The notes beneath the pieces are model-generated. The model was not told the DNA's origin and did not search any database. It saw only the letters and a list, made by a program, of their open reading frames with translations. A program made the translations under genes and the position numbers. Below, one piece after another: positions 14,124 to 63,139 of a stretch of DNA of 64,000 nt. This DNA comes from Candidatus Binatia bacterium (lineage in GTDB: Bacteria > Desulfobacterota > Binatia > UBA9968 > JAJDTQ01), in the NCBI GenBank assembly GCA_963666515.2, contig OY762897.2:2112001-2176000 (forward strand). Direction: 5' to 3'. Every line of letters starts with the position of its first letter. The first letter of the stretch is position 1.

Positions 14124-15194
14124 TCAGCCCGTCCGTATCGGCTTGGTCACCGCCAGCGTGTTCCGTCCCGTCCACATGGGCAGCAGCACGCAGTGCCGGT
14201 GCTTGCCGCCGGTCACGATCACCATGATGTCGTCGGGCCGGGTGGCCAGGTGCACGATGCCGTCGGGGGTGACGTTGGGGGACTCCCGCAGCAGTTCCTC
14301 GTCGCTCTTGGTGCCCTTGCGGCGGTCCGGGATGCTGGCGAAGGTGAGGGTGGAATGCTCCCACAGGTACTCGCGGACGTCCGCCCGCGTGATGCCGTCC
14401 CGGGCCATGATCTCGGCGTCCTCGCTGCACAGGGCCACCAGCGGCGTGCCGCCGCCGAAGCTGCCCACGTCCAGGTGGCTGCCGCCGTGGTGCATGGCGA
14501 TGACCTCGGCCAGCGACGACAGCGCCTCCTGCCCGGTGCTGCCGGCGGTGTGCATGGGGATGAAGCCGTTGATGCCGCACACGGTCACGGCGCTCTGCTC
14601 GGGCTTGTAGCCCCGGCTCACGTGGTAGGGCTCCCAGGGGCTCTTCTCTTCGTTCTCGCCGAAGCAGAAGCTGTACTTGCCGGGCCAGCCGAAGGTGGCG
14701 CGGTCGGTGTCGCCGGGATAGCCGCCGCCGATGGTGATGAGGATCAGGCGGACGGCGCGGCCGATGGTGGCGTTGGCGCGGTGGCCGGGGCCGAACGCGC
14801 CGGCGTCGCAGTTGATGCCGATCTCGTTCCGCACCGGGCCGTTCACCAGCAGCGCCGGACCCGCGTAGCCGGTGGTGGCCTGGACCCCGTAGAGGTTGAA
14901 GCGGGGCTCCATGATGCCCTCGACCGCGGCGATGACCACCGGCAGGTATTCCGGCAGGCAGCCCGCCATCACGCAGTTGACGGCGACCTTCTCGACCGTG
15001 GCCGGTGCCCACTTGGGCGGCACCTGCCCCAGTATCTCCTGGGGGTCGCGGTGGGTGCCCGCGAGCATGCGCTCCACGCGCTCGCGGGTGGGCGGCACGA
15101 TGGGCAGGCCGTCGCTCAACTGGCGCTCCAGGAACCAGTCGTTGGCCGCCTCCAGCGAGTCCTCCACCTCGATGACGTCGGAGACGAGCTTCAC
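14124..15194 (-). CDS. Conserved protein, partner of UGSC (seleno)protein
   Basis: SDGLPIVPPT, EKVAVNCVMAGC, GPGHRANATIGRA; GTGA overlap with the upstream gene. Confidence 0.8.
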   Translation of the reverse strand: MKLVSDVIEVEDSLEAANDWFLERQLSDGLPIVPPTRERVERMLAGTHRDPQEILGQVPPKWAPATVEKVAVNCVMAGCLPEYLPVVIAAVEGIMEPRFNLYGVQATTGYAGPALLVNGPVRNEIGINCDAGAFGPGHRANATIGRAVRLILITIGGGYPGDTDRATFGWPGKYSFCFGENEEKSPWEPYHVSRGYKPEQSAVTVCGINGFIPMHTAGSTGQEALSSLAEVIAMHHGGSHLDVGSFGGGTPLVALCSEDAEIMARDGITRADVREYLWEHSTLTFASIPDRRKGTKSDEELLRESPNVTPDGIVHLATRPDDIMVIVTGGKHRHCVLLPMWTGRNTLAVTKPIRTG

Positions 15195-15772
15195 CTAGCT
15201 TCCGCCCCCGAAGCACCGGCCTCCGCCGGCTTGCCGGCGTCGGCGTCCGTCAGGATCTCGCGCACCGGCCCGATGGCGATCCTTGCATCCTCGGCGTGCT
15301 CGCCCGGCCGCGCGCCGCCGCTCGGGTGGTGCGGGATCTGCACCAGCGGCAGCTTGGGCATGCCGAAGAACGTCGCTTCCTTCCGGCCCAGCTCCATGAA
15401 GATGGTCTGGCACAGGGTCACCGTGGGGGTGCCGCGCTTCTGGATCTCGATGGCGTCGTGGACACTCCACGACGTGCAGGACCCTCAAGCGCCCAGGCCG
15501 GTGACGACCGCGTCGCACCGGCTCAGCATCTCCTCGATCATCTCCCCCGGCGCCGCATTCATGTGGCTGGGCTTCTTCTTGAGCAGCACCTCGGCCGCGC
15601 CCGTCTGCTCCTCGATCAGCCTCGCCAGTTCCTCGAACATCGGACTCGAGTTGGCCTGACCGTTGTCGATGATGCCGACGACTTTCCCGGCCAGACCATC
15701 CAGCCCAGGGACGGGCGGATGATTCTCCAGCAGGACGTCGGCCCTTGGATCGAGCATCTCAAGCTTTCCCAT
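15191..15772 (-). CDS. UGSC-family selenoprotein (in-frame UGA at 15485-15487)
   Basis: Track ORFs 15485..15784 and 15191..15421 share one frame: VVTGLGA-TGA-GSCTSWSVHDA gives a UxxC motif; 193 aa with readthrough. Confidence 0.85.
15454..15474 (-). promoter_or_regulatory. Candidate bacterial SECIS hairpin
   Basis: CGTCGTGGA-GTG-TCCACGACG perfect stem begins after a 10-nt spacer 3' of the UGA; GU in the loop. Confidence 0.65.
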
Positions 15773-15807
15773 GAGGCCCTCCATCGCACGCGTGATTTAC
15801 CTGCGAG

Positions 15808-15851: not shown

Positions 15852-17060
15852 TCACAAGAGCTGGGACAAGAAAGTTCTGGCCGGGACCACCAGGGGCGGT
15901 CCCGGTCCCGCAAAGCAATCGGCGTCAACGAAGTCCGCATCTACCACCACCTGAAACGCAAACGGCGCGTTGACCTGATCCTGGAAGTACTTGAGAGACC
16001 CGCTCATGGATTCATCCCGGTGTTTCACCTCCACCAGGAACCAGGGTCGGCCTTCGCGGGCCACTACGAAGTCCACTTCCCGCTTTTCCCTGTCGCGCAG
16101 GTAGCCGAGTTCAAACCGCCCGAGGCCCATATCGTTCCAACCGTCAACCGCCTTGAGGAGATGACACGCAACAAAAGTCTCCGCTTTCTCCCCCACATCC
16201 TCGATATCCGACCAGTCCCTCAAGTACCACTTGGGCTCCTTGCGCAGCGATCGGGAGACGTTCCGGAACCACGGTCTGACGAGAAAGCCCAGGTGGAAGT
16301 CGCACAGTGTGGCGACCCAGCGACGGACGGTGTCCGCCGCCACCCGCACTTCTCCGGCGAGGTTGCCGTACACGAGTTGACCCCCCGACTGACGGCTCAG
16401 TCGATGGACAAGGACCTCCATCTGGTCGATCTGCTGAACCTGGGTGATGTCGCGGATGTCTTCCCGGACCAGTTGCGCGAGACGTAGCGACCGCCACCTA
16501 CGGCTGAAGCGGATGTCGCGTTTAAGGAACGGCTCAGGATATCCCCCGTGACTCCAAAGCGCTTCGAAATCACCTGCGTCGATTCTGCCTGGAAACCGGA
16601 CGATCCGCTCGGGATCGGGAAGCTCCCTACTTATCGTCTCCGCTACGGAGAAAGGGTGCATCCGGTAGGAGAAGTACCGCCCCATCAGGCTGTCGCCACC
16701 CCTGCGGAAGACGTCCAGACGGCTGCTGCCCGTGACGATGATCCGGAGGCGGTCACTATAGGTGTCGAACAGGCCCTTGAGGAAGGGTTTCCAGTTCGGG
16801 AACTTGTGTAGTTCGTCGAAGAGCGCTACCGGAGAGGTGGCGGAGAGCCGCTCCACTCCCATGGCGGCGGCAAGGCTGGCCGGACCCGCCAGCACGAGTT
16901 CCCGGTCGTCGAGATTGTCCCAGTTGCAGTAGTTGTCGGCGTGACGCCGGCACGTCGTGGTCTTGCCCACCTGCCGCGGACCGCTGACAAACACCATCTG
17001 CCGGTTGGCGGACAAGTGCTCGGCCAGCAGGGCATCGTAGACGCGCGATTCCGTGTCCAT
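15852..17060 (-). CDS. AAA_14 ATPase with DUF4143 domain
   Basis: GPRQVGKTT, ALFDE, TGSS, GGYPE, REVDFVV..VEVK. Confidence 0.9.
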   Translation of the reverse strand: MDTESRVYDALLAEHLSANRQMVFVSGPRQVGKTTTCRRHADNYCNWDNLDDRELVLAGPASLAAAMGVERLSATSPVALFDELHKFPNWKPFLKGLFDTYSDRLRIIVTGSSRLDVFRRGGDSLMGRYFSYRMHPFSVAETISRELPDPERIVRFPGRIDAGDFEALWSHGGYPEPFLKRDIRFSRRWRSLRLAQLVREDIRDITQVQQIDQMEVLVHRLSRQSGGQLVYGNLAGEVRVAADTVRRWVATLCDFHLGFLVRPWFRNVSRSLRKEPKWYLRDWSDIEDVGEKAETFVACHLLKAVDGWNDMGLGRFELGYLRDREKREVDFVVAREGRPWFLVEVKHRDESMSGSLKYFQDQVNAPFAFQVVVDADFVDADCFAGPGPPLVVPARTFLSQLL

Positions 17061-17166
17061 AGCTTGACCATTATCCATAGCATCGTATTCTGGTCAAGAC
17101 TATTCGACGATGTACCGTATTTTGGCCGGACTTCGTCGTACTTGGTCAATCCCTCGGGCCGACATA

Positions 17167-26744: not shown

Positions 26745-27581
26745 CTAGAAAAACGCCAGGGTGCGCATCTCGATGCTCTCCCGGGCCGGCGCATCGGGAG
26801 GCGTGTCGGGGTCGTCGAAGGCGCAGTGCAGGGTCCAGCGGGCGCGCCCGTCCTTCTCGGACTCGAAGGTCTTGAACACCACGGCCTCGTGGCGCTCCAT
26901 GTGCGGAAAGTAGTACCAGTAGTGCCTGGGATTGAAGGTGTAGTGCAGCGTCTCGCCGCGCCGGTCCGGGTAGATGCGCGCGGTGGGGATGGCGCCCTCC
27001 ATGCCGGTGCTGCCGGCGTCGCAAATGGCCAGCGGATCCCGAATCACCGGCCGGTTGATGGGACGCCAGGTCTGGATCACGCCGAACCGGCCCTTGAGTA
27101 GCTCCTCGGCTTCGTCCGGCAGAATGTCGCGCACCCGCTGCGGCCCGGACCAGTCCGTGTAGTCGTTGTGGGCGCCGCGCACCGGGCCGCCCACCTGCTT
27201 CGCCTCCCGCGTGGCCTCGTCGCCCGAGCGCAGCGTGTGGTCGAACACCACCACGCGTTTCGCCCCGGAGGTCTTCTTCACCAGCTCCTCGGTCTCCTTG
27301 TAGTAGACCGTGCGCACCTCTTCCTCGTCGTAGAAGTCCTTCATTTGCGTGTCGTGGCGCACCAGCACGAAGCCCTCGCGCTCCAGCGAAAGCCCCCCGG
27401 CCAGGAGCCGCGCGTTGTGGATAGCGACCGTGTGGCTCTCGTAGTTGCCCCTGCGCCTTCGGTCGGCCTCCTTCTGGCTCATGCCGCCGTAGCTCGCGGG
27501 GGCCTCGGTGTCTTTCTTGAGGTAGTTGACCACGCCCTGTATGCATTCCGGCTGTGCCGCCTCTTGGGGTCTTGCCATCAC
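26745..27581 (-). CDS. CmcJ/NvfI/AsaB-like oxidoreductase
   Basis: FDHTLR, HNDYT, WRPI..DPLAICDA, HCAF, RESIEMR. Confidence 0.85.
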   Translation of the reverse strand: MMARPQEAAQPECIQGVVNYLKKDTEAPASYGGMSQKEADRRRRGNYESHTVAIHNARLLAGGLSLEREGFVLVRHDTQMKDFYDEEEVRTVYYKETEELVKKTSGAKRVVVFDHTLRSGDEATREAKQVGGPVRGAHNDYTDWSGPQRVRDILPDEAEELLKGRFGVIQTWRPINRPVIRDPLAICDAGSTGMEGAIPTARIYPDRRGETLHYTFNPRHYWYYFPHMERHEAVVFKTFESEKDGRARWTLHCAFDDPDTPPDAPARESIEMRTLAFF

Positions 27582-31874: not shown

Positions 31875-32015
31875 CCACCCGCCGCCCCGCGCCGGCGCCG
31901 GGCCGCGCTTGACAGCCCGTCGGGGCGCGTGGTGATATTGGGCGCCGCGCGGGTTTGGCTGCGCGGGCGGCTTCGGCAAGAACTTCATGGGCGTGCGACG
32001 GCGACGGAGCGACAC

Positions 32016-32705
32016 ATGGCAGGCACCAGTTCCCTGAGAGAGAGGCTCGAAGCCGCGGTGCTGGAGCGGCACTGCGCGAACCATCCGCTGACCGAGAAGT
32101 GGGCCGCGGGCAAGCTCAGCCGCAACGCCATGATGGGTTGGGCCATCGAGCAGTACCACTGGATCAGCAACATCTACCGCGGCGAGCTGTACAAGGCGGC
32201 CAATACGCCGCTCGAGGTGCAGCGGCTGCTGCTGGGCAACTACCTGGAGGAGAGCGACCCGGAACGGCCGCACCTGGACATCATCCTGCGCTTTTGCACC
32301 GCCAACGGCGGCGACGCCGAGGCCGCCAAGCGCGGCCGCGGACTGCCCACCACCGAAGCCTGGGCGACCTGGTTCAACCGGGTGTGCAGGGACGAGTCCT
32401 TCATCTGCAGCGTGGCCGCCACCAACATCGGCACCGAGTCCCAGTCGCCCATGCTGTACAGCAAGGTGCTTCCGGCCCTGCGTGACGTCTACCACTTCGA
32501 CGAAGACGCCATCGAGCACTTCTGGCTCCACGCGGACGTGGATACCGAGCATGGCGGCCGGGGCTTCGATATCCTGGAACGGTACTGCACCACACCCGAG
32601 CTACAGCAGATGGCCGTCGATTACGCCCGGGAGAGCGCGAAGATGCGCTGGTTCTTCTTCGACGGCATCTACATCCACTACGAGATGGGCTACGAGTTGC
32701 GGTAG
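32016..32705 (+). CDS. CADD/PqqC/TenA-fold heme-oxygenase-like diiron protein
   Basis: NYLEE..PH, GTESQSP, FWLHADVDTEH ligand set; GGAG RBS. Confidence 0.85.
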   Translation: MAGTSSLRERLEAAVLERHCANHPLTEKWAAGKLSRNAMMGWAIEQYHWISNIYRGELYKAANTPLEVQRLLLGNYLEESDPERPHLDIILRFCTANGGDAEAAKRGRGLPTTEAWATWFNRVCRDESFICSVAATNIGTESQSPMLYSKVLPALRDVYHFDEDAIEHFWLHADVDTEHGGRGFDILERYCTTPELQQMAVDYARESAKMRWFFFDGIYIHYEMGYELR

Positions 32706-37866: not shown

Positions 37867-38904
37867 ATGACGGTACGATTTCCCACAACCGGGGCTATCG
37901 CGGGCGATCTCTACGGCATGGTGCTGCGCGAACTGACGCTGTGCAGGGCCACGTCCGACGAGACCGTCGTGGTGTTCACCGACACCCGCACCAACACCAA
38001 CTACGCCGCCGCGTTCCTGGCCGCGGCCAAGGAGGTGGCCGCCAGCGCGTTCGAGATCAAGATTCCCCTTCTGCCCGGCACCGAGGGCAACGACACCAAC
38101 GTGGCGCCGGTGGTGGAGATCCTGAAGACCGCGCACTTGGTGGTGGACCTCACCACCGGCGGCGTCCTCTACCTCTACAGCAAGACGCTCGCCGACGTGC
38201 TGTCGGGTGGCACCCGGGTGCTCCAGGTGCGCGGCACCGAGGACCAACTCCGGCGGTGCTTCCCCGACGAGGCAGTGCGGCAACGGACCCTGAACGGCGC
38301 AAGGAAACTGGAAGAAGCCGGGGAGATCCGCGTCACCACCGAGACCGGCACCGACCTCACCATGCGCAAGGACGGCCGGCGCGGGGTCACCCAGTACGGC
38401 ATCAGCGACGTGCCCGGACGCTGGGACAGTTGGCCCTCGGGCTTCCTCTACTGCGCGCCGCTGGAGGACAGCGCCAACGGCACGCTGATGCTGGATCCCG
38501 GCGACCTGCTGGTGATGCTGGGCCGCTACGTCCAACAGCCCGTGCGCATCGAGGTGAAGGACGGCTGTATTACCGCGGTCGAGGGGGGCGTGGACGCCAT
38601 CCTGCTGAGAGAGCACCTGGAGCAGTCGGGAGACTCCCAGGCGTTCATCATCTCCCACATCGGCTGGGGCACGGACCCGCGGGCGCGCTGGGTGGAGGTG
38701 GCGCAGCGCGGCACCGAGGAAGGCGCCCGGGACGCCCGCTCCACCTACGGCAACGTGCAGATCGCCTTCGGCGCCAACTACGCCCTAGGCGGGAAGAACA
38801 CCACGCTGGCCCACGAGGACCTGATCCTGCGCCGGGCCGCGTTCCATCTCGACGGGGAGATGATCGTGGATGACGGCCGGATCATCCCCGAAGAGCTGAC
38901 GTGA
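37867..38904 (+). CDS. NicX-like 2,5-dihydroxypyridine dioxygenase / M29-fold protein
   Basis: QYGISDVPGRWDSWPSG, SHIGWG, HED. Confidence 0.78.
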   Translation: MTVRFPTTGAIAGDLYGMVLRELTLCRATSDETVVVFTDTRTNTNYAAAFLAAAKEVAASAFEIKIPLLPGTEGNDTNVAPVVEILKTAHLVVDLTTGGVLYLYSKTLADVLSGGTRVLQVRGTEDQLRRCFPDEAVRQRTLNGARKLEEAGEIRVTTETGTDLTMRKDGRRGVTQYGISDVPGRWDSWPSGFLYCAPLEDSANGTLMLDPGDLLVMLGRYVQQPVRIEVKDGCITAVEGGVDAILLREHLEQSGDSQAFIISHIGWGTDPRARWVEVAQRGTEEGARDARSTYGNVQIAFGANYALGGKNTTLAHEDLILRRAAFHLDGEMIVDDGRIIPEELT

Positions 38905-41170: not shown

Positions 41171-41314
41171 GCACCTCCTTGAGGGATAGGCCCTCTATAC
41201 CCCGAATGATATGCGAAGGGTATGGGAAGGCCGACGGCTTCATGCGCGCCGTGGGATCATGTAGACTATGCGGGAATCCTGAATCGTCCGTTCCATCCCG
41301 TGAGCAAAACCGGA

Positions 41315-43648
41315 ATGCCCGACGACACCACCAGGCGCGCGCCCCCGCTCGACTTCATCCGCACCATCGTCCGGGACGACCTGGCCGGCGGGAAACACCC
41401 CGGCGGCGTGGTCACCCGCTTTCCGCCGGAGCCCAACGGCTTTCTCCACATCGGCCACGCCAAGTCCATCTGCCTGAACTTCGGCGTCGCCGGGGAATTC
41501 GGCGGCCGTTGCAACCTGCGCTTCGACGATACCGACCCGGCCAAGGAGGACACGCTCTTCGTCGAGGCCATCAAGGACAACATCCGCTGGCTGGGCTTCG
41601 ACTGGGGCGAGGGCCTGTACAACGCCTCCGACTACTTCGAGGAGCTTTACCGCTTCGCCGTCCAGCTCATCGAGCGCGGCGGCGCCTACGTGTGCAGCCT
41701 GAGCGAGGCGGAGATCCGGGAGACCCGCGGCACGGTGACGGAGCCCGGCCGCGAGAGCCCCTACCGCGCCCGCGCGGTGGACGAGAACCTCGACCTGTTC
41801 GCCCGCATGCGCGCCGGCGAGTTCCCTGACGGCGCCCACGTGCTGCGTGCCAGGATCGACATGGCGTCGCCGAACATGAAGATGCGCGACCCGGTGATCT
41901 ACCGCATCCGCCACGTCACCCACCACCACACCGGCGACGCCTGGCCCATCTATCCCATGTACGACTTCGCCCACCCGCTGTCGGACGCGCTGGAAGGGGT
42001 CACCCACTCCCTCTGCACCCTGGAGTTCGAGAACAACCGGGAGTTCTACGACTGGATCCTGGCGCAGGTGGACGTCCCCTCCACCCCGCGTCAGATCGAG
42101 TTCGCCCGGCTGAACCTCGACTACACGGTAATGAGCAAGCGCCGGCTGCTGGAGCTGGTGGAGGAGGAGCACGTCGCCGGGTGGGACGACCCGCGCATGC
42201 CCACCCTGGCCGGACTGAGGCGGCGCGGCTACACGCCCGAGGCCATCCGCAACTTCTGCCACAGCGTCGGCATCGCCAAGAGCGACAACACCGTCGAGAT
42301 GGGCCAGCTAGAGTACTTCATTCGCGACGACCTGAACCACAAGGCTCCCCGGGTGCTGGCTGTCGAACGTCCCCTCAAGGTGGTCCTCACCAACTACCCG
42401 GAGGGTCGCGTGGAAGAGCTGGAGGCGCCCTACTATCCCCACGACGTGCCCAAGGAAGGATCGCGCCCGCTCCCCTTTTCCCGCGAGATATACATCGAGC
42501 GGGACGACTTCCTCGAAGAACCGCCCAAGGGCTACCGCCGGCTGGCGCCGGGGCGCGAGGTGCGGCTGCGCTACGCCTACATCATCCGTTGCGACGAGGT
42601 GGTCAAGGATCCATCCACGGGCGAGGTGACGGAGTTACGCTGCTCCTACGACCCGGAGACCCGGAGCGGCTCCGACAAGAGCGGCAAGAAGGTGCAGGGC
42701 ACCATCCACTGGGTATCCGCCGCTCACGCGCTCGAAGCCGAGTTGCGGCTCTACGACCGGCTGTTCTCGGCGCCGGACCCCCAGGGCGACCCCGGCCGCG
42801 ACTATCGCGAGCTGCTGAACCCCAAGTCCCTGGAGACCGTCACCGGACTCGTCGAGCCGAGCCTGGACAGCGCCCGCCCGGGCGACCGCTTCCAGTTCGA
42901 GCGGCTGGGCTACTTCTGCGTGGACCCGGACTCCGCTGCCGGTGCGCCGGTGTTCAACCGCATCGTCACGTTGCGGGACTCGTGGCTCAAGATCGTACGG
43001 CGGGACGACGGCTCCGGCGAGCCCAGGCGGTCCCGCGGAACGCAGGCCGCCCCGAAGAACGCGGCCAGGGTTCCCGCGGAAAGAAGGGCGCCGGCCCCCG
43101 CCGAACTGACCGCGGCGCAGCACTCCAGAATGGAGCACTACCGCGACCGGCTCGGGCTCGCGACCGGCGACGCCTTCCTCCTGGCCTCGGACGACAGCCT
43201 GGCCGGGTTCTTCGAGGAGGCGGTCCGCGCCCACGACAACGCCAAGGCGGTGGCCAACTGGATCGTCAACGAACTGCGCCCGGCGGTGAAAGACAATCCG
43301 CTGGACTCATTGCCGTTGACTCCGGCGGCGCTGGCGGAACTGGTGGCCCTCATCGACAGCCAGACCATTTCCGGCAACGCCGGTAAACAGGTCTTCGCCG
43401 CCATGCTGGAAAGCCGCGAGAGCCCGGCCGGCATCGTCGAAAGGCTCGGACTCCGGCAGGTAACCGACGCGGGCCAGCTCGAACCCCTCGTCGACGCCGT
43501 CCTCGCCGCAAATCCCGGGAACGTCACCCTCTATCGCGAGGGCAAGACCAATCTCCTGGGATTCTTCGTGGGCCAGGTGATGAAGTCCACCAACGGCAAG
43601 GCCGACCCCCGCCTCGTCAACGAGTTGCTGCGGGCGAAGCTGGCCTGA
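41315..43648 (+). CDS. glnS: Glutaminyl-tRNA synthetase with C-terminal YqeY domain
   Basis: [19 protein letters not shown]-terminal [14 protein letters not shown]; start 41300 or 41315. Confidence 0.95.
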
Positions 43649-56537: not shown

Positions 56538-56999
56538 TTACCGTTTTCCGGCTCGGTGGCGTTTCGGAGGCTGCGGGTTGTTGGCGGGATTGGTGTCGTG
56601 CTTCGCCATGGCGTTCACCGCCGGCCCGCCGACCAGGGGCGCCAGTTCCGCCTCCAGCGCGTCGGCTTTTGCCTTGTCGTAGACCTCGTCGCCGTCCACG
56701 TAGAGCGTGAAGGACTTGACGTACTTCGCCTTCTTGGCGGGATCCTCGATGGTGGCCTTGGTCCAGGCGTAGAGCGGATACTTGTCGACACCCTGTCGCT
56801 CGGCTTCGGCGCAATAGCCGGCAAAGGCGTCGTACTGGCACCGCAGCACCGCGCCATGCCTGTCGAGCACGGCTACAAGCGGTTCGAGGTCCGGATGGCT
56901 GTCCCCCGTGCGCGCGGCCTCGGCGACTTCGTCTCCAAGGTTGACGCGCAACTGGTACAGCCATTCACGGGTCATGGATTCGGGCGTCTTCTCCGCCAT
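56538..56999 (-). CDS. Hypothetical protein
   Basis: 153 aa with host-like codon usage; WLYQLR..CQYDAFAGYC..HDTNPANNPQPP. Confidence 0.7.
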   Translation of the reverse strand: MAEKTPESMTREWLYQLRVNLGDEVAEAARTGDSHPDLEPLVAVLDRHGAVLRCQYDAFAGYCAEAERQGVDKYPLYAWTKATIEDPAKKAKYVKSFTLYVDGDEVYDKAKADALEAELAPLVGGPAVNAMAKHDTNPANNPQPPKRHRAGKR

Positions 57000-61656: not shown

Positions 61657-61675
61657 GGTGTCCGAGGGAAGCCAC

Positions 61676-62404
61676 ATGGAAGCGCACGCTGCGAAACGGA
61701 ACGGCGTGGAGAGCGTCTGGCAGGAACTGGTGGAGCTCGTCAACGCGCAGTTCGAGACCCCGCCCTTTCAGCGGCTGCTGGGGCTCCGGTTCTCGCAGGC
61801 GCGTGCCCAGGCCCTGTCCATCCAGATGAAGCACTACGTCGCCAACCGGCGGGACTGCTGGGCGTTCGTCGCCGGCGCCGCCCCGCTGAGCGTCAAGCGC
61901 CTCATCTGGGAGCACGAGGGCGAGGAGCTGATGGGCGACAAGGCCGCGGGCAAGGTGGACCACATCACGCTCGCCGTGCAAGAGGGCAGGATTTTCGGTC
62001 TGTCGCCCGAGGATTACGAGCGCGTACGCCCGCTGGACGCGGCTGTGGCGTGTTTCTACGCGTGGATCCACTTGGCCAAGGACCGGCCGTGGCGCGAGGC
62101 CGTCGCGGCGTCGGCAGTGCTGGAGATGCGCAACTCCGACGACTTGGTGCGCGGCGGCTCGCTGTCCTACCGCGTCGGCAAGAACCTCGAACGGGACCTG
62201 GGGATTCCGCTGAAGCGGCAGATCAACAACGCCGAGCACGTGACCGCGGACGTGGAGCACGGCCAACTCCTGCTGGAAGTGGCGCGCGAACACTGCCACA
62301 CCGAGGAAGAGCAGCAGGCGCTGCTGCGGGGCGCGCGGGAGAGCCTCGTGATCGACCGGGCCTACCGCGAGCAACTCGCCAACATGATGAAGGCGCTGGA
62401 CTAG
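61676..62404 (+). CDS. Heme-oxygenase-like (TenA/PqqC/CADD) diiron protein, paralog 1
   Basis: HEGEEL..DH, LEMRN, HVTADVEH. Confidence 0.75.
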   Translation: MEAHAAKRNGVESVWQELVELVNAQFETPPFQRLLGLRFSQARAQALSIQMKHYVANRRDCWAFVAGAAPLSVKRLIWEHEGEELMGDKAAGKVDHITLAVQEGRIFGLSPEDYERVRPLDAAVACFYAWIHLAKDRPWREAVAASAVLEMRNSDDLVRGGSLSYRVGKNLERDLGIPLKRQINNAEHVTADVEHGQLLLEVAREHCHTEEEQQALLRGARESLVIDRAYREQLANMMKALD

Positions 62405-62431: not shown

Positions 62432-63139
62432 ATGCCCGATATCGCGAAGCTCAAGAGCACTCTGAACGAGATGTGCAACCGCCAGTACACAACCGACGAG
62501 TTCCAGGACCTGCTCACGCTGCCCTGGACCATGGAGCGCGGGCGCTACTACGTGGTGCAGAACGCCCTCTACACCAGGAACCGGCGGGACTGTTGGGGCT
62601 ACGTGCAGGCCGCGGCGCCGCTGGACGTCAAGGCGCTGGTGTGGCAGCACGAGAGCGACGAACTGATCAACGACCCGCGCGCCGGCATGGATCACTACTC
62701 CCTGACCGTCAAGCAGGGCGAGGTCATCGGCCTGGAACGCGAGGACTTCGAGAAGGCCGAGTTGCCGCCCATGGCGCAGGCGGCCTTCCTCGCCTGGCAC
62801 CACATCGCCGTCAAGGGGCCGTGGCTGGCTTCGTTCACCTCCTCCCAGATGCTGGAGCGCCGCAACAACCCCGACATCGTGAAGGACGGCGGCATGTCCT
62901 ACCGTATCGGCAAGAAGTTCGAGAACGAGCTGGGCATCAGCCTCAAGCGGATGATCTCGCTCAACGTGCACTCCACCGCGGACACCGAGCACTCCGACAT
63001 GATGGACGGCGTCTACGACAAGCACGTGCGCACGCAGGAGGACTACGACACCGTGCTGCGGGCCGCGAAGCAGTGCATGGCCATCGACCGCGCCTACCGC
63101 GGCGGGCTGGCCTACGTCATGCAGCGCATCGAGGGCTGA
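62432..63139 (+). CDS. Heme-oxygenase-like diiron protein, paralog 2
   Basis: HESDEL..DH, LERRN, HSTADTEH. Confidence 0.75.
   Translation: MPDIAKLKSTLNEMCNRQYTTDEFQDLLTLPWTMERGRYYVVQNALYTRNRRDCWGYVQAAAPLDVKALVWQHESDELINDPRAGMDHYSLTVKQGEVIGLEREDFEKAELPPMAQAAFLAWHHIAVKGPWLASFTSSQMLERRNNPDIVKDGGMSYRIGKKFENELGISLKRMISLNVHSTADTEHSDMMDGVYDKHVRTQEDYDTVLRAAKQCMAIDRAYRGGLAYVMQRIEG

Follow-up and report, generated by a model that had tools for sequence, protein, structure and literature searches.

The UGSC selenoprotein family (PF24696 in Pfam, NF041046 in NCBIfam) is recognized by its UGSC motif, a UGA codon followed by a hairpin, homologs with cysteine (Cys), and linkage or fusion to a domain called Unknown_1 (PMC1976440, PMC2398784; all PMC articles are cited here for individual passages). 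The motif and the fusion partner have been in print since 2007-08 (PMC1976440, PMC2398784, PMC13188914). With 255 sequences, UGSC was among the five most abundant selenoprotein families of the Global Ocean Sampling survey (PMC2398784). The family is also treated in PMC9312934, PMC5029168 and PMC7539508, is not mentioned in bioRxiv 2022.07.06.499078, and remained uncharacterised according to a 2026 review (PMC13188914). It has been grouped with redox selenoproteins, and a thioredoxin-like fold has been suggested for it (PMC2398784, PMC13188914). In this study, we analyzed 64,000 nucleotides (nt) of DNA from Candidatus Binatia bacterium (assembly GCA_963666515.2, contig OY762897.2, positions 2,112,001 to 2,176,000), hereafter the window. 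A gene in this window almost certainly encodes a further UGSC-family selenoprotein (PF24696), of a family already known but unstudied.

The read-through gene and its hairpin

The frame starts at ATG 15772 of the minus strand, where the alignment of the relatives also begins. It runs through 95 codons to a TGA (15487-15485), and through 97 more to a second TGA (15193-15191). Translation across the internal TGA gives ...CDAVVTGLGA*GSCTSWSVHDA..., and under translation table 11 two open reading frames (ORFs), 15784-15485 and 15421-15191, are seen instead. The features are listed below.

15778..15782, minus strand: Shine-Dalgarno-like GGAGG, 5 nt before the ATG, read from the sequence
15191..15772, minus strand: UGSC-family gene, 193 amino acids (aa) with the internal TGA read as selenocysteine (Sec), matching PF24696 and NF041046
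15485..15487, minus strand: in-frame TGA, codon 96, the putative Sec of U96-G-S-C99
15476..15478, minus strand: Cys99 codon, second residue of the UxxC motif, Cys in 118/126 family rows
15454..15474, minus strand: hairpin resembling a Sec insertion sequence (SECIS), with a 9-bp stem of -13.5 kcal/mol and the GUG loop 19 nt downstream of the UGA

The first-pass annotation, which named no strand for the feature, had described two ORFs joined in frame over a single TGA as GLGA-U-GSC, and a 9-bp stem with a GUG loop after a 10-nt spacer. On the minus strand, the ORFs are joined in this way, and the hairpin is exactly as described: the spacer is 15484-15475, and the perfect stem is formed by 15474-15466 with 15462-15454. 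The plus-strand frame 15191-15772 is also open, and was rejected as only a shadow of the minus-strand gene. The assignment to the UGSC family, made in the same annotation, is supported by the PF24696 match, the motif and the Unknown_1 linkage. The PF24696 match (147.6 bits, gathering cut-off 25, E 5e-43) covers nearly the whole model and spans the internal stop, with residues 5-175 aligned to model positions 1-171 of 172. The NF041046 score of 112.3 bits (E 2e-32, full length) is below the equivalog cut-off of 125, as are those of several other PF24696 members; thus, the membership rests on Pfam. The (U/C)GSC motif is present at the conserved position, and the adjacent gene fits the Unknown_1 block in Fig. 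S1A of PMC2398784. The Binatia subfamily differs from the usual form in having Ala before U (GLGA-U), whereas Asp is usual (GD-U/C).

In bacterial Sec insertion, SelB, GTP and Sec-tRNA bind as a complex to a hairpin just 3' of the UGA. The window hairpin was compared with the bacterial SECIS model by a script of published constraints, for example a hairpin 16-37 nt downstream and a G in the loop (PMC13188914), and it satisfies all four of them. It resembles the consensus in its 3-nt loop with G first, its 9-bp stem, its distance from the UGA and its stability, and differs in being wholly coding and almost invariant, which leaves no covariation signal. The folding z-scores are -3.3, -3.1, -1.8 and -1.6 for 30, 45, 60 and 80 nt, respectively, and no Rfam family matches the hairpin. 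A loose form of the SECIS model fits 152 of the 1518 TGA triplets in the window, and 21 of the 1518 have a hairpin at least equally stable. Taken alone, the hairpin is therefore modest evidence. By a GC filter, only two of the 1518 triplets have coding-like frames on both sides; the other one (63137, plus strand) has no hairpin, and the scan of these triplets found no further recoded TGA within the window. The combination of the TGA, the hairpin and coding frames on both sides is not due to chance.

Conservation of the UGA and the selenium cluster of Paracoccus

Relatives were collected in one scan of GTDB genomes, using patterns upstream of the TGA site. The 72 candidate stretches gave 66 loci, most of them titled Candidatus Binatia or deltaproteobacteria, with 61-97% identity. 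Complete Binatia chromosomes, for example OZ220712.1 and OZ241976.1, were among the sequences found. The codon-96 site is TGA in the window and in 66/66 loci, and both halves of the gene are conserved in frame. A second, paralogous UGSC copy is present in nine loci (L025, L030, L031, L033, L039, L054, L061, L062 and L065), and all nine copies have the TGA and the same hairpin core. The paralogous copies lie 2-4 kb upstream with their own partner copy, and their hairpin loop is GUG or GUA. The site is also TGA in Paracoccus and Acidovorax homologs. The first-pass annotation had expected Cys in homologs at this position. In the family alignment, the other 125 rows have Cys 115 times, Trp three times, Ser four times and Gly twice, although this alignment is biased toward Cys forms, since the TGA-type genes appear in protein databases as split entries; the expectation does not hold for the four closest full-length database proteins, which have Trp. 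In a quick-method tree of 60 rows, 21 TGA rows and one Cys row group together with weak support (83), and the tree was not used as evidence.

The codons at +5 (TCG), +7 (AGT), +8 (GTC) and +9 (CAC) after the UGA show no synonymous change in 67 main copies, and the rare AGT codon, which produces the GU of the loop, is fixed across copies. The mean heterozygosity is 0.06 for six hairpin codons and 0.47 for 73 other conserved codons (p 7e-5, a value that overstates the certainty since the sequences are related). The inner seven stem pairs are intact in 51/51 distinct sequences, and six of the nine pairs never vary. Judging from this codon usage, the hairpin is under selection. Eight plasmid homologs were also compared. 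The two with TGA (Paracoccus versutus and Acidovorax T1) retain the hairpin with hardly a changed letter, and five of the six with a Cys codon have weak folds (-7 to -12 kcal/mol). The Embleya homolog has a Cys codon and a near-identical peptide without the hairpin.

In P. versutus and P. ferrooxidans, selA and selB enclose the TGA-type UGSC gene and its partner, and two thioredoxin-reductase-like genes are also present; a tRNA-Sec was detected in the P. versutus locus (Rfam, 73.6 bits), and selD is absent from the 44 kb of Paracoccus sequence read.

L069 5091-15872 and L078 5138-21739: selenium cluster of Paracoccus pTAV4 and pFER4

This cluster contains trxB, selA, a MetE-like protein with a TusA-like N-terminus, DsrE, TusA and a cysteine desulfurase, and also the TGA-type UGSC gene with its partner, selB, a second trxB-like gene and tRNA-Sec. 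In P. ferrooxidans, a segment flanked by IS5 elements is inverted, and the 3' end of selB is cut from the rest. The MetE-like gene of the window has only 23-29% identity to that of the cluster. The P. ferrooxidans record gives the UGSC gene as two hypothetical proteins, so the first-pass statement that gene callers split such a gene is borne out there. The first-pass reading of the UGA as Sec is supported by the TGA in 66/66 loci, the distant Cys homologs, the frozen hairpin and the Paracoccus sel cluster.

The partner gene and the neighbourhood

The gene downstream of the UGSC gene corresponds to Unknown_1, whose sequence in the text of Fig. S1A of PMC2398784 agrees with it; fusion of this domain to UGSC was already reported there.

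14124..15194, minus strand: partner gene Unknown_1 (PMC2398784), 356 aa, with a GTG start that overlaps the stop of the UGSC gene (GTGA)
15188..15200, minus strand: shortened UGSC-partner junction, from the alignment with nine close loci

No Pfam or NCBIfam family matches the partner. It has at least 7811 homologs, and the closest named ones are mostly from Binatia. It is found within 800 nt downstream of the UGSC gene in 57 of the 66 loci, and six loci are untestable. With a limit of 300 nt the count was 39/63 (window included), and the limit was widened owing to a DUF559 insert. All 21 plasmid records with a UGSC match contain the partner, and 22 of the 191 UGSC proteins scanned are fused to it. 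Cys79 (98/101) and Cys177 (92/101) are conserved in the partner, as are D28, N141, R146 and E180. Its predicted structure is confident (predicted local distance difference test, pLDDT, 94.7). The best Foldseek matches include class I fumarate hydratase (E 4e-4, TM-score 0.24), with Z 4.0-4.2 over 187-197 aligned residues and a root-mean-square deviation (r.m.s.d.) of 5.3-6.3. The N-terminal half was barely tested in the fold search, and no new fold is claimed. In the ESM Atlas, only unnamed clusters of the same family were found, with automatic names such as 'thioredoxin fragment'. A profile match suggesting homology of UGSC and the partner was rejected, since it is due to a UGSC fragment inside one row; P0009 and P0156 were rejected as a pair from one organism, as their compositions differ.

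The junction in the window is ~75-85 nt shorter than in close relatives, whose UGSC stop, intergenic stretch and partner ATG are missing here. The distance from the UGA to DGLP is 374 nt in the window and 447-615 nt in 24 close loci. The deletion occurs only in the window among these 25 sequences, and it is either real or an assembly error. Because the junction is shortened, the partner begins at the GTG overlapping the UGSC stop; if the junction is real, translation of the partner would be coupled to successful Sec read-through. In many soil Binatia, a DUF559 (endonuclease-like) gene of ~500 nt, often frameshifted, sits between UGSC and partner (L036 5990-6513; also L027, L032, L033, L039, L043, L044, L057 and others). 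Inverted repeats of the TTCCCCCCTTGCGGGGAA type lie at its ends, and it is likely a small mobile element. Other arrangements were also observed. Two haloarchaeal loci (L084 4319-6981, L085 4279-6978) have two partner copies flanking one UGSC gene. On the IncP plasmid p2-T1 of Acidovorax sp. T1 (L071 7998-10496), beside IS1071, a TGA-type UGSC gene is fused in frame to the partner and runs into an IS91-type transposase piece; an S-adenosylmethionine (SAM) riboswitch is found at 12906-13010 of L071. Some UGSC domains (P0210, P0242, P0298, P0311; L075 7926-8741) are fused to a small domain ending in C-x-x-C-x-x-P, which by eye resembles NifU.

A thioredoxin-reductase-like gene is near the pair in 8 of the 17 plasmid loci fetched (Paracoccus twice, Roseovarius, two Variovorax, Arthrobacter, Neorhizobium and Haloterrigena) and directly upstream of it in 5/66 Binatia loci; trxA is near the pair in 1/17 plasmid loci. 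The pairs of Roseovarius and Arthrobacter are of the Cys type. The other genes nearby mostly encode carboxylate transporters, CoA transferases, CoA-ester lyases, acyl-CoA dehydrogenases and short-chain dehydrogenases/reductases. In the window these catabolic neighbours are weak evidence, because such genes fill the window anyway. UGSC family members occur in aerobes and haloarchaea too.

Directly upstream of the UGSC gene, an AAA_14 + DUF4143 ATPase gene (15852-17078, minus strand) has a lower GC content at third codon positions (0.76). A related gene is found in 15 close loci and not in all, and it is probably a variable insert. The window is rich in tripartite tricarboxylate transporters (TTT), amidohydrolases and dioxygenases. 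It also contains a glutaminyl-tRNA synthetase-like gene with a C-terminal GatB/Yqey domain (41222-43648, plus strand), three heme-oxygenase-like/TenA proteins (31929-32705, 61658-62404 and 62432-63139, plus strand), and three ORFs without Pfam match (37867-38904, 26745-27581 and 56538-56999).

Predicted fold, relation to GrdB/PrdB and possible function

The UGSC model (pLDDT 92.8, predicted TM-score 0.86) has five strand-helix repeats; U96 ends strand 3, and C99 starts the next helix. The structural matches listed comprise domains of the receiver, periplasmic-binding, TIR and flavodoxin-like types, whose scores are close to each other (best Z 12.1, r.m.s.d. 4.6, 136 aligned residues). Thioredoxin is not among the matches listed, which is not a formal exclusion. 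The predicted fold appears to be flavodoxin/receiver-like and not of the thioredoxin type suggested earlier. This fold class is common, and therefore the fold gives no function. Glycine or proline reductase is also not among the matches listed, from a library that may not contain such structures. Sequence searches of solved structures with the UGSC alignment, the partner alignment and P0260 gave nothing credible.

In an NCBIfam scan of 126 UGSC members at E up to 1, selenoprotein-B families of glycine and proline reductases rank next after UGSC itself: GrdB in 63 members, GrdF in 36, the broad selenoprotein-B model in 31, GrdH in 19 and PrdB in 13. The next unrelated family is found in 5/126. 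The best match is that of P0260 (E 2.9e-10, 32.7 bits) over residues 66-191 (126 residues). In GrdB the Sec is presumably near position 350. According to the match ranges, the catalytic residue of UGSC maps to ~346-347 of 431 in the GrdB profile and ~149 of 238 in the PrdB profile, and Sec/Cys is in register with the UxxC of both. The Sec of Clostridioides difficile PrdB is residue 151 (PMC11229817). UGSC thus resembles GrdB/GrdF/GrdH (TIGR01917, TIGR01918) and PrdB (TIGR04483) in having Sec in a UxxC motif at the matching place, with weak recurrent profile matches over the C-terminal, Sec-bearing part. GrdB and PrdB work with a second subunit, to which the adjacent partner may be likened, and the glycine reductase pathway uses the thioredoxin system (PMC13188914), as may UGSC. 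In contrast to GrdB, UGSC lacks the N-terminal 300 residues, and in place of the UxxCxxC motif of GrdB (PMC13188914) the window protein has U-G-S-C-T-S-W, without the third Cys. No pyruvoyl subunit (PrdA/GrdE), GrdA or GrdC is seen near UGSC, and its partner belongs to an unrelated family; none of the 45 window proteins scanned, the read-through gene included, has a PrdA/GrdE Pfam match, and the 84 partner proteins scanned have no GrdB-type matches. From these profiles, the relation of UGSC to GrdB/PrdB is one of remote similarity, not membership.

In the literature searched, we found no text tying UGSC to GrdB/PrdB or to a flavodoxin-like fold, although subscription papers, clan notes and supplements may hold it. 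Nor did that literature contain the reassigned fold, the link to GrdB/PrdB or the sel cluster of Paracoccus, which we add here.

We propose the following explanation, to which we give a probability of about 0.6 as a whole. The UGSC gene is very likely intact, with its codon-96 UGA recoded to Sec in the source organism. SelB-GTP-Sec-tRNA would bind the hairpin with the GU loop, yielding a 193-aa protein with a U96xxC99 centre. The Sec96 would be placed where the third strand of an alpha/beta sandwich ends, and the conserved residues N37, K67, C99 and D106 should cluster around this point together with the HP motif. The protein probably acts as the redox-active half of a two-protein enzyme that it forms with the 356-aa partner; the partner would bind to it and most likely bind the substrate. 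The Sec96 selenolate would attack the substrate, Cys99 would resolve the intermediate as a selenenylsulfide, and an NADPH thioredoxin-reductase-like enzyme would regenerate the U96/C99 centre. For the chemistry, we tentatively suggest a GrdB/PrdB-like reductive cleavage of a C-heteroatom bond in a small carboxylate or CoA ester, because the pair sits in catabolic clusters with TTT or tripartite ATP-independent periplasmic (TRAP) transporters, CoA transferases and acyl-CoA dehydrogenases. It is conceivable, at a similarly tentative level, that UGSC and Unknown_1 form a branch, so far unrecognised, of the selenoprotein-B superfamily of glycine/proline reductases. In such a branch, the Sec domain would stand alone, a 350-aa subunit would replace the pyruvoyl subunit, and a dedicated thioredoxin reductase would recycle the centre directly. 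Aerobes, sponge-type Binatia and haloarchaea would then reductively cleave C-S, C-N or C-O bonds of imported organic acids.

Several results weigh against this explanation. On the side of Sec insertion, selA, selB and selD were not found in the window or in the flanks of the 66 loci (1.10 Mb searched), and no tRNA was found in the window or in the loci scanned for it (60 of the 66). A search for a Binatia SelB with the E. coli SelB as the query was uninformative, with only enterobacterial proteins among the 120 matches listed. The outer two stem pairs of the hairpin are each broken in 11/51 sequences. The stem covariation is not above that of shuffles (97 of 500), because the stem barely varies. 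The Cys-coding Natrinema homolog holds a similar stem (-17.5 kcal/mol), and therefore the peptide dictates part of the hairpin. On the side of the enzyme, three loci with room for the partner lack it. The partner has no clear solved fold (best Z 6.5 over 89 residues, none at or above 8) and no match to PrdA/GrdE. The trxB gene is absent from the window and from 61/66 Binatia loci, and the trxB neighbour counts are raw, without a background rate near random genes. The GrdB match of the window protein itself is weak (E 0.012, 11.1 bits), all GrdB/PrdB matches are far under the curated cut-offs (65 bits for the broad TIGR01918), and UGSC has no match to GrdB in Pfam. Finally, the UGSC-partner fusions of Vibrio europaeus and Sporomusa termitida (L079 5374-7059, L080 5377-7101), next to aconitase X and DUF126 genes, have no CxxC. 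Some family members therefore cannot use Sec/Cys chemistry, which speaks against a single chemistry throughout the family.

The Trp residues at the site also count against Sec, and they bear on the possibility that the UGA encodes Trp (code 4/25-like) or Cys, or that the gene is truly split (95-aa + 76-aa) or a pseudogene. The four Trp-bearing proteins have 64-69% identity and come from 1.0-1.4 kb contigs of the Joint Genome Institute (JGI); in eight other close database proteins GLGA is the exact C-terminus, a GTG is available as a start for the C-terminal half, and the missing sel genes would fit as well. No TGG was found at the site in any homolog DNA read, among which the DNA of the four Trp proteins was not included, and these proteins are most likely gene calls in which UGA was translated as Trp. 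A UGA=Trp code is rejected, since TGA is an ordinary stop: many window genes end in TGA, and at the ends of orthologous neighbours in the clade TGA alternates with TAA and TAG. A split would cut the catalytic motif, the TGA is fixed in 66/66 loci with both halves conserved, and the Paracoccus copy sits among Sec genes. Taken together, a Trp or Cys reading, a split gene or a pseudogene is very improbable.

With Sec inserted, the role of the protein may still be different. UGSC could serve generally as a thiol/selenol oxidoreductase or redox carrier, similar to thioredoxin in role and not in fold, which keeps Cys79 and Cys177 of the partner or other proteins reduced, and the partner would be the enzyme. 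The UxxC motif, the conserved Cys residues of the partner and the place of UGSC among redox selenoproteins in the literature are consistent with this, as are the TrxB-like neighbours, which usually come without trxA, so that UGSC could be a TrxB substrate. We regard the carrier role as less likely, because UGSC is similar, in register, to the region of GrdB/PrdB in which Sec attacks the substrate, and because its near-obligate linkage to one partner is more in keeping with a dedicated enzyme. The Sec/Cys pair could alternatively be a metal or iron-sulfur ligand in a non-redox hydro-lyase or isomerase formed by the two proteins, as the fumarate hydratase matches of the partner and the aconitase X neighbours of the Cys-less fusions suggest. 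Since the structural scores of the partner are within the range of chance and the recurrent trxB neighbours point to redox cycling, such an enzyme is improbable. We therefore retain the two-protein redox enzyme as the preferred explanation.

The annotation of the window is repaired by these results, with one selenoprotein in place of two fragments. The read-through gene indicates the use of Sec by Binatia; we found no paper on Sec in Binatia or Binatota, and the passages of PMC9999580 do not address Sec in Binatota. P. versutus, in which the pair lies inside a sel gene cluster, offers a culturable test system. The predicted non-thioredoxin fold, the GrdB/PrdB link, the near-obligate partner and the trxB neighbours turn a family of 'unknown function' into an enzyme hypothesis with a culturable host. 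If UGSC and Unknown_1 do form a branch of the selenoprotein-B superfamily, a function class would be provided for one of the most abundant aquatic selenoprotein families.

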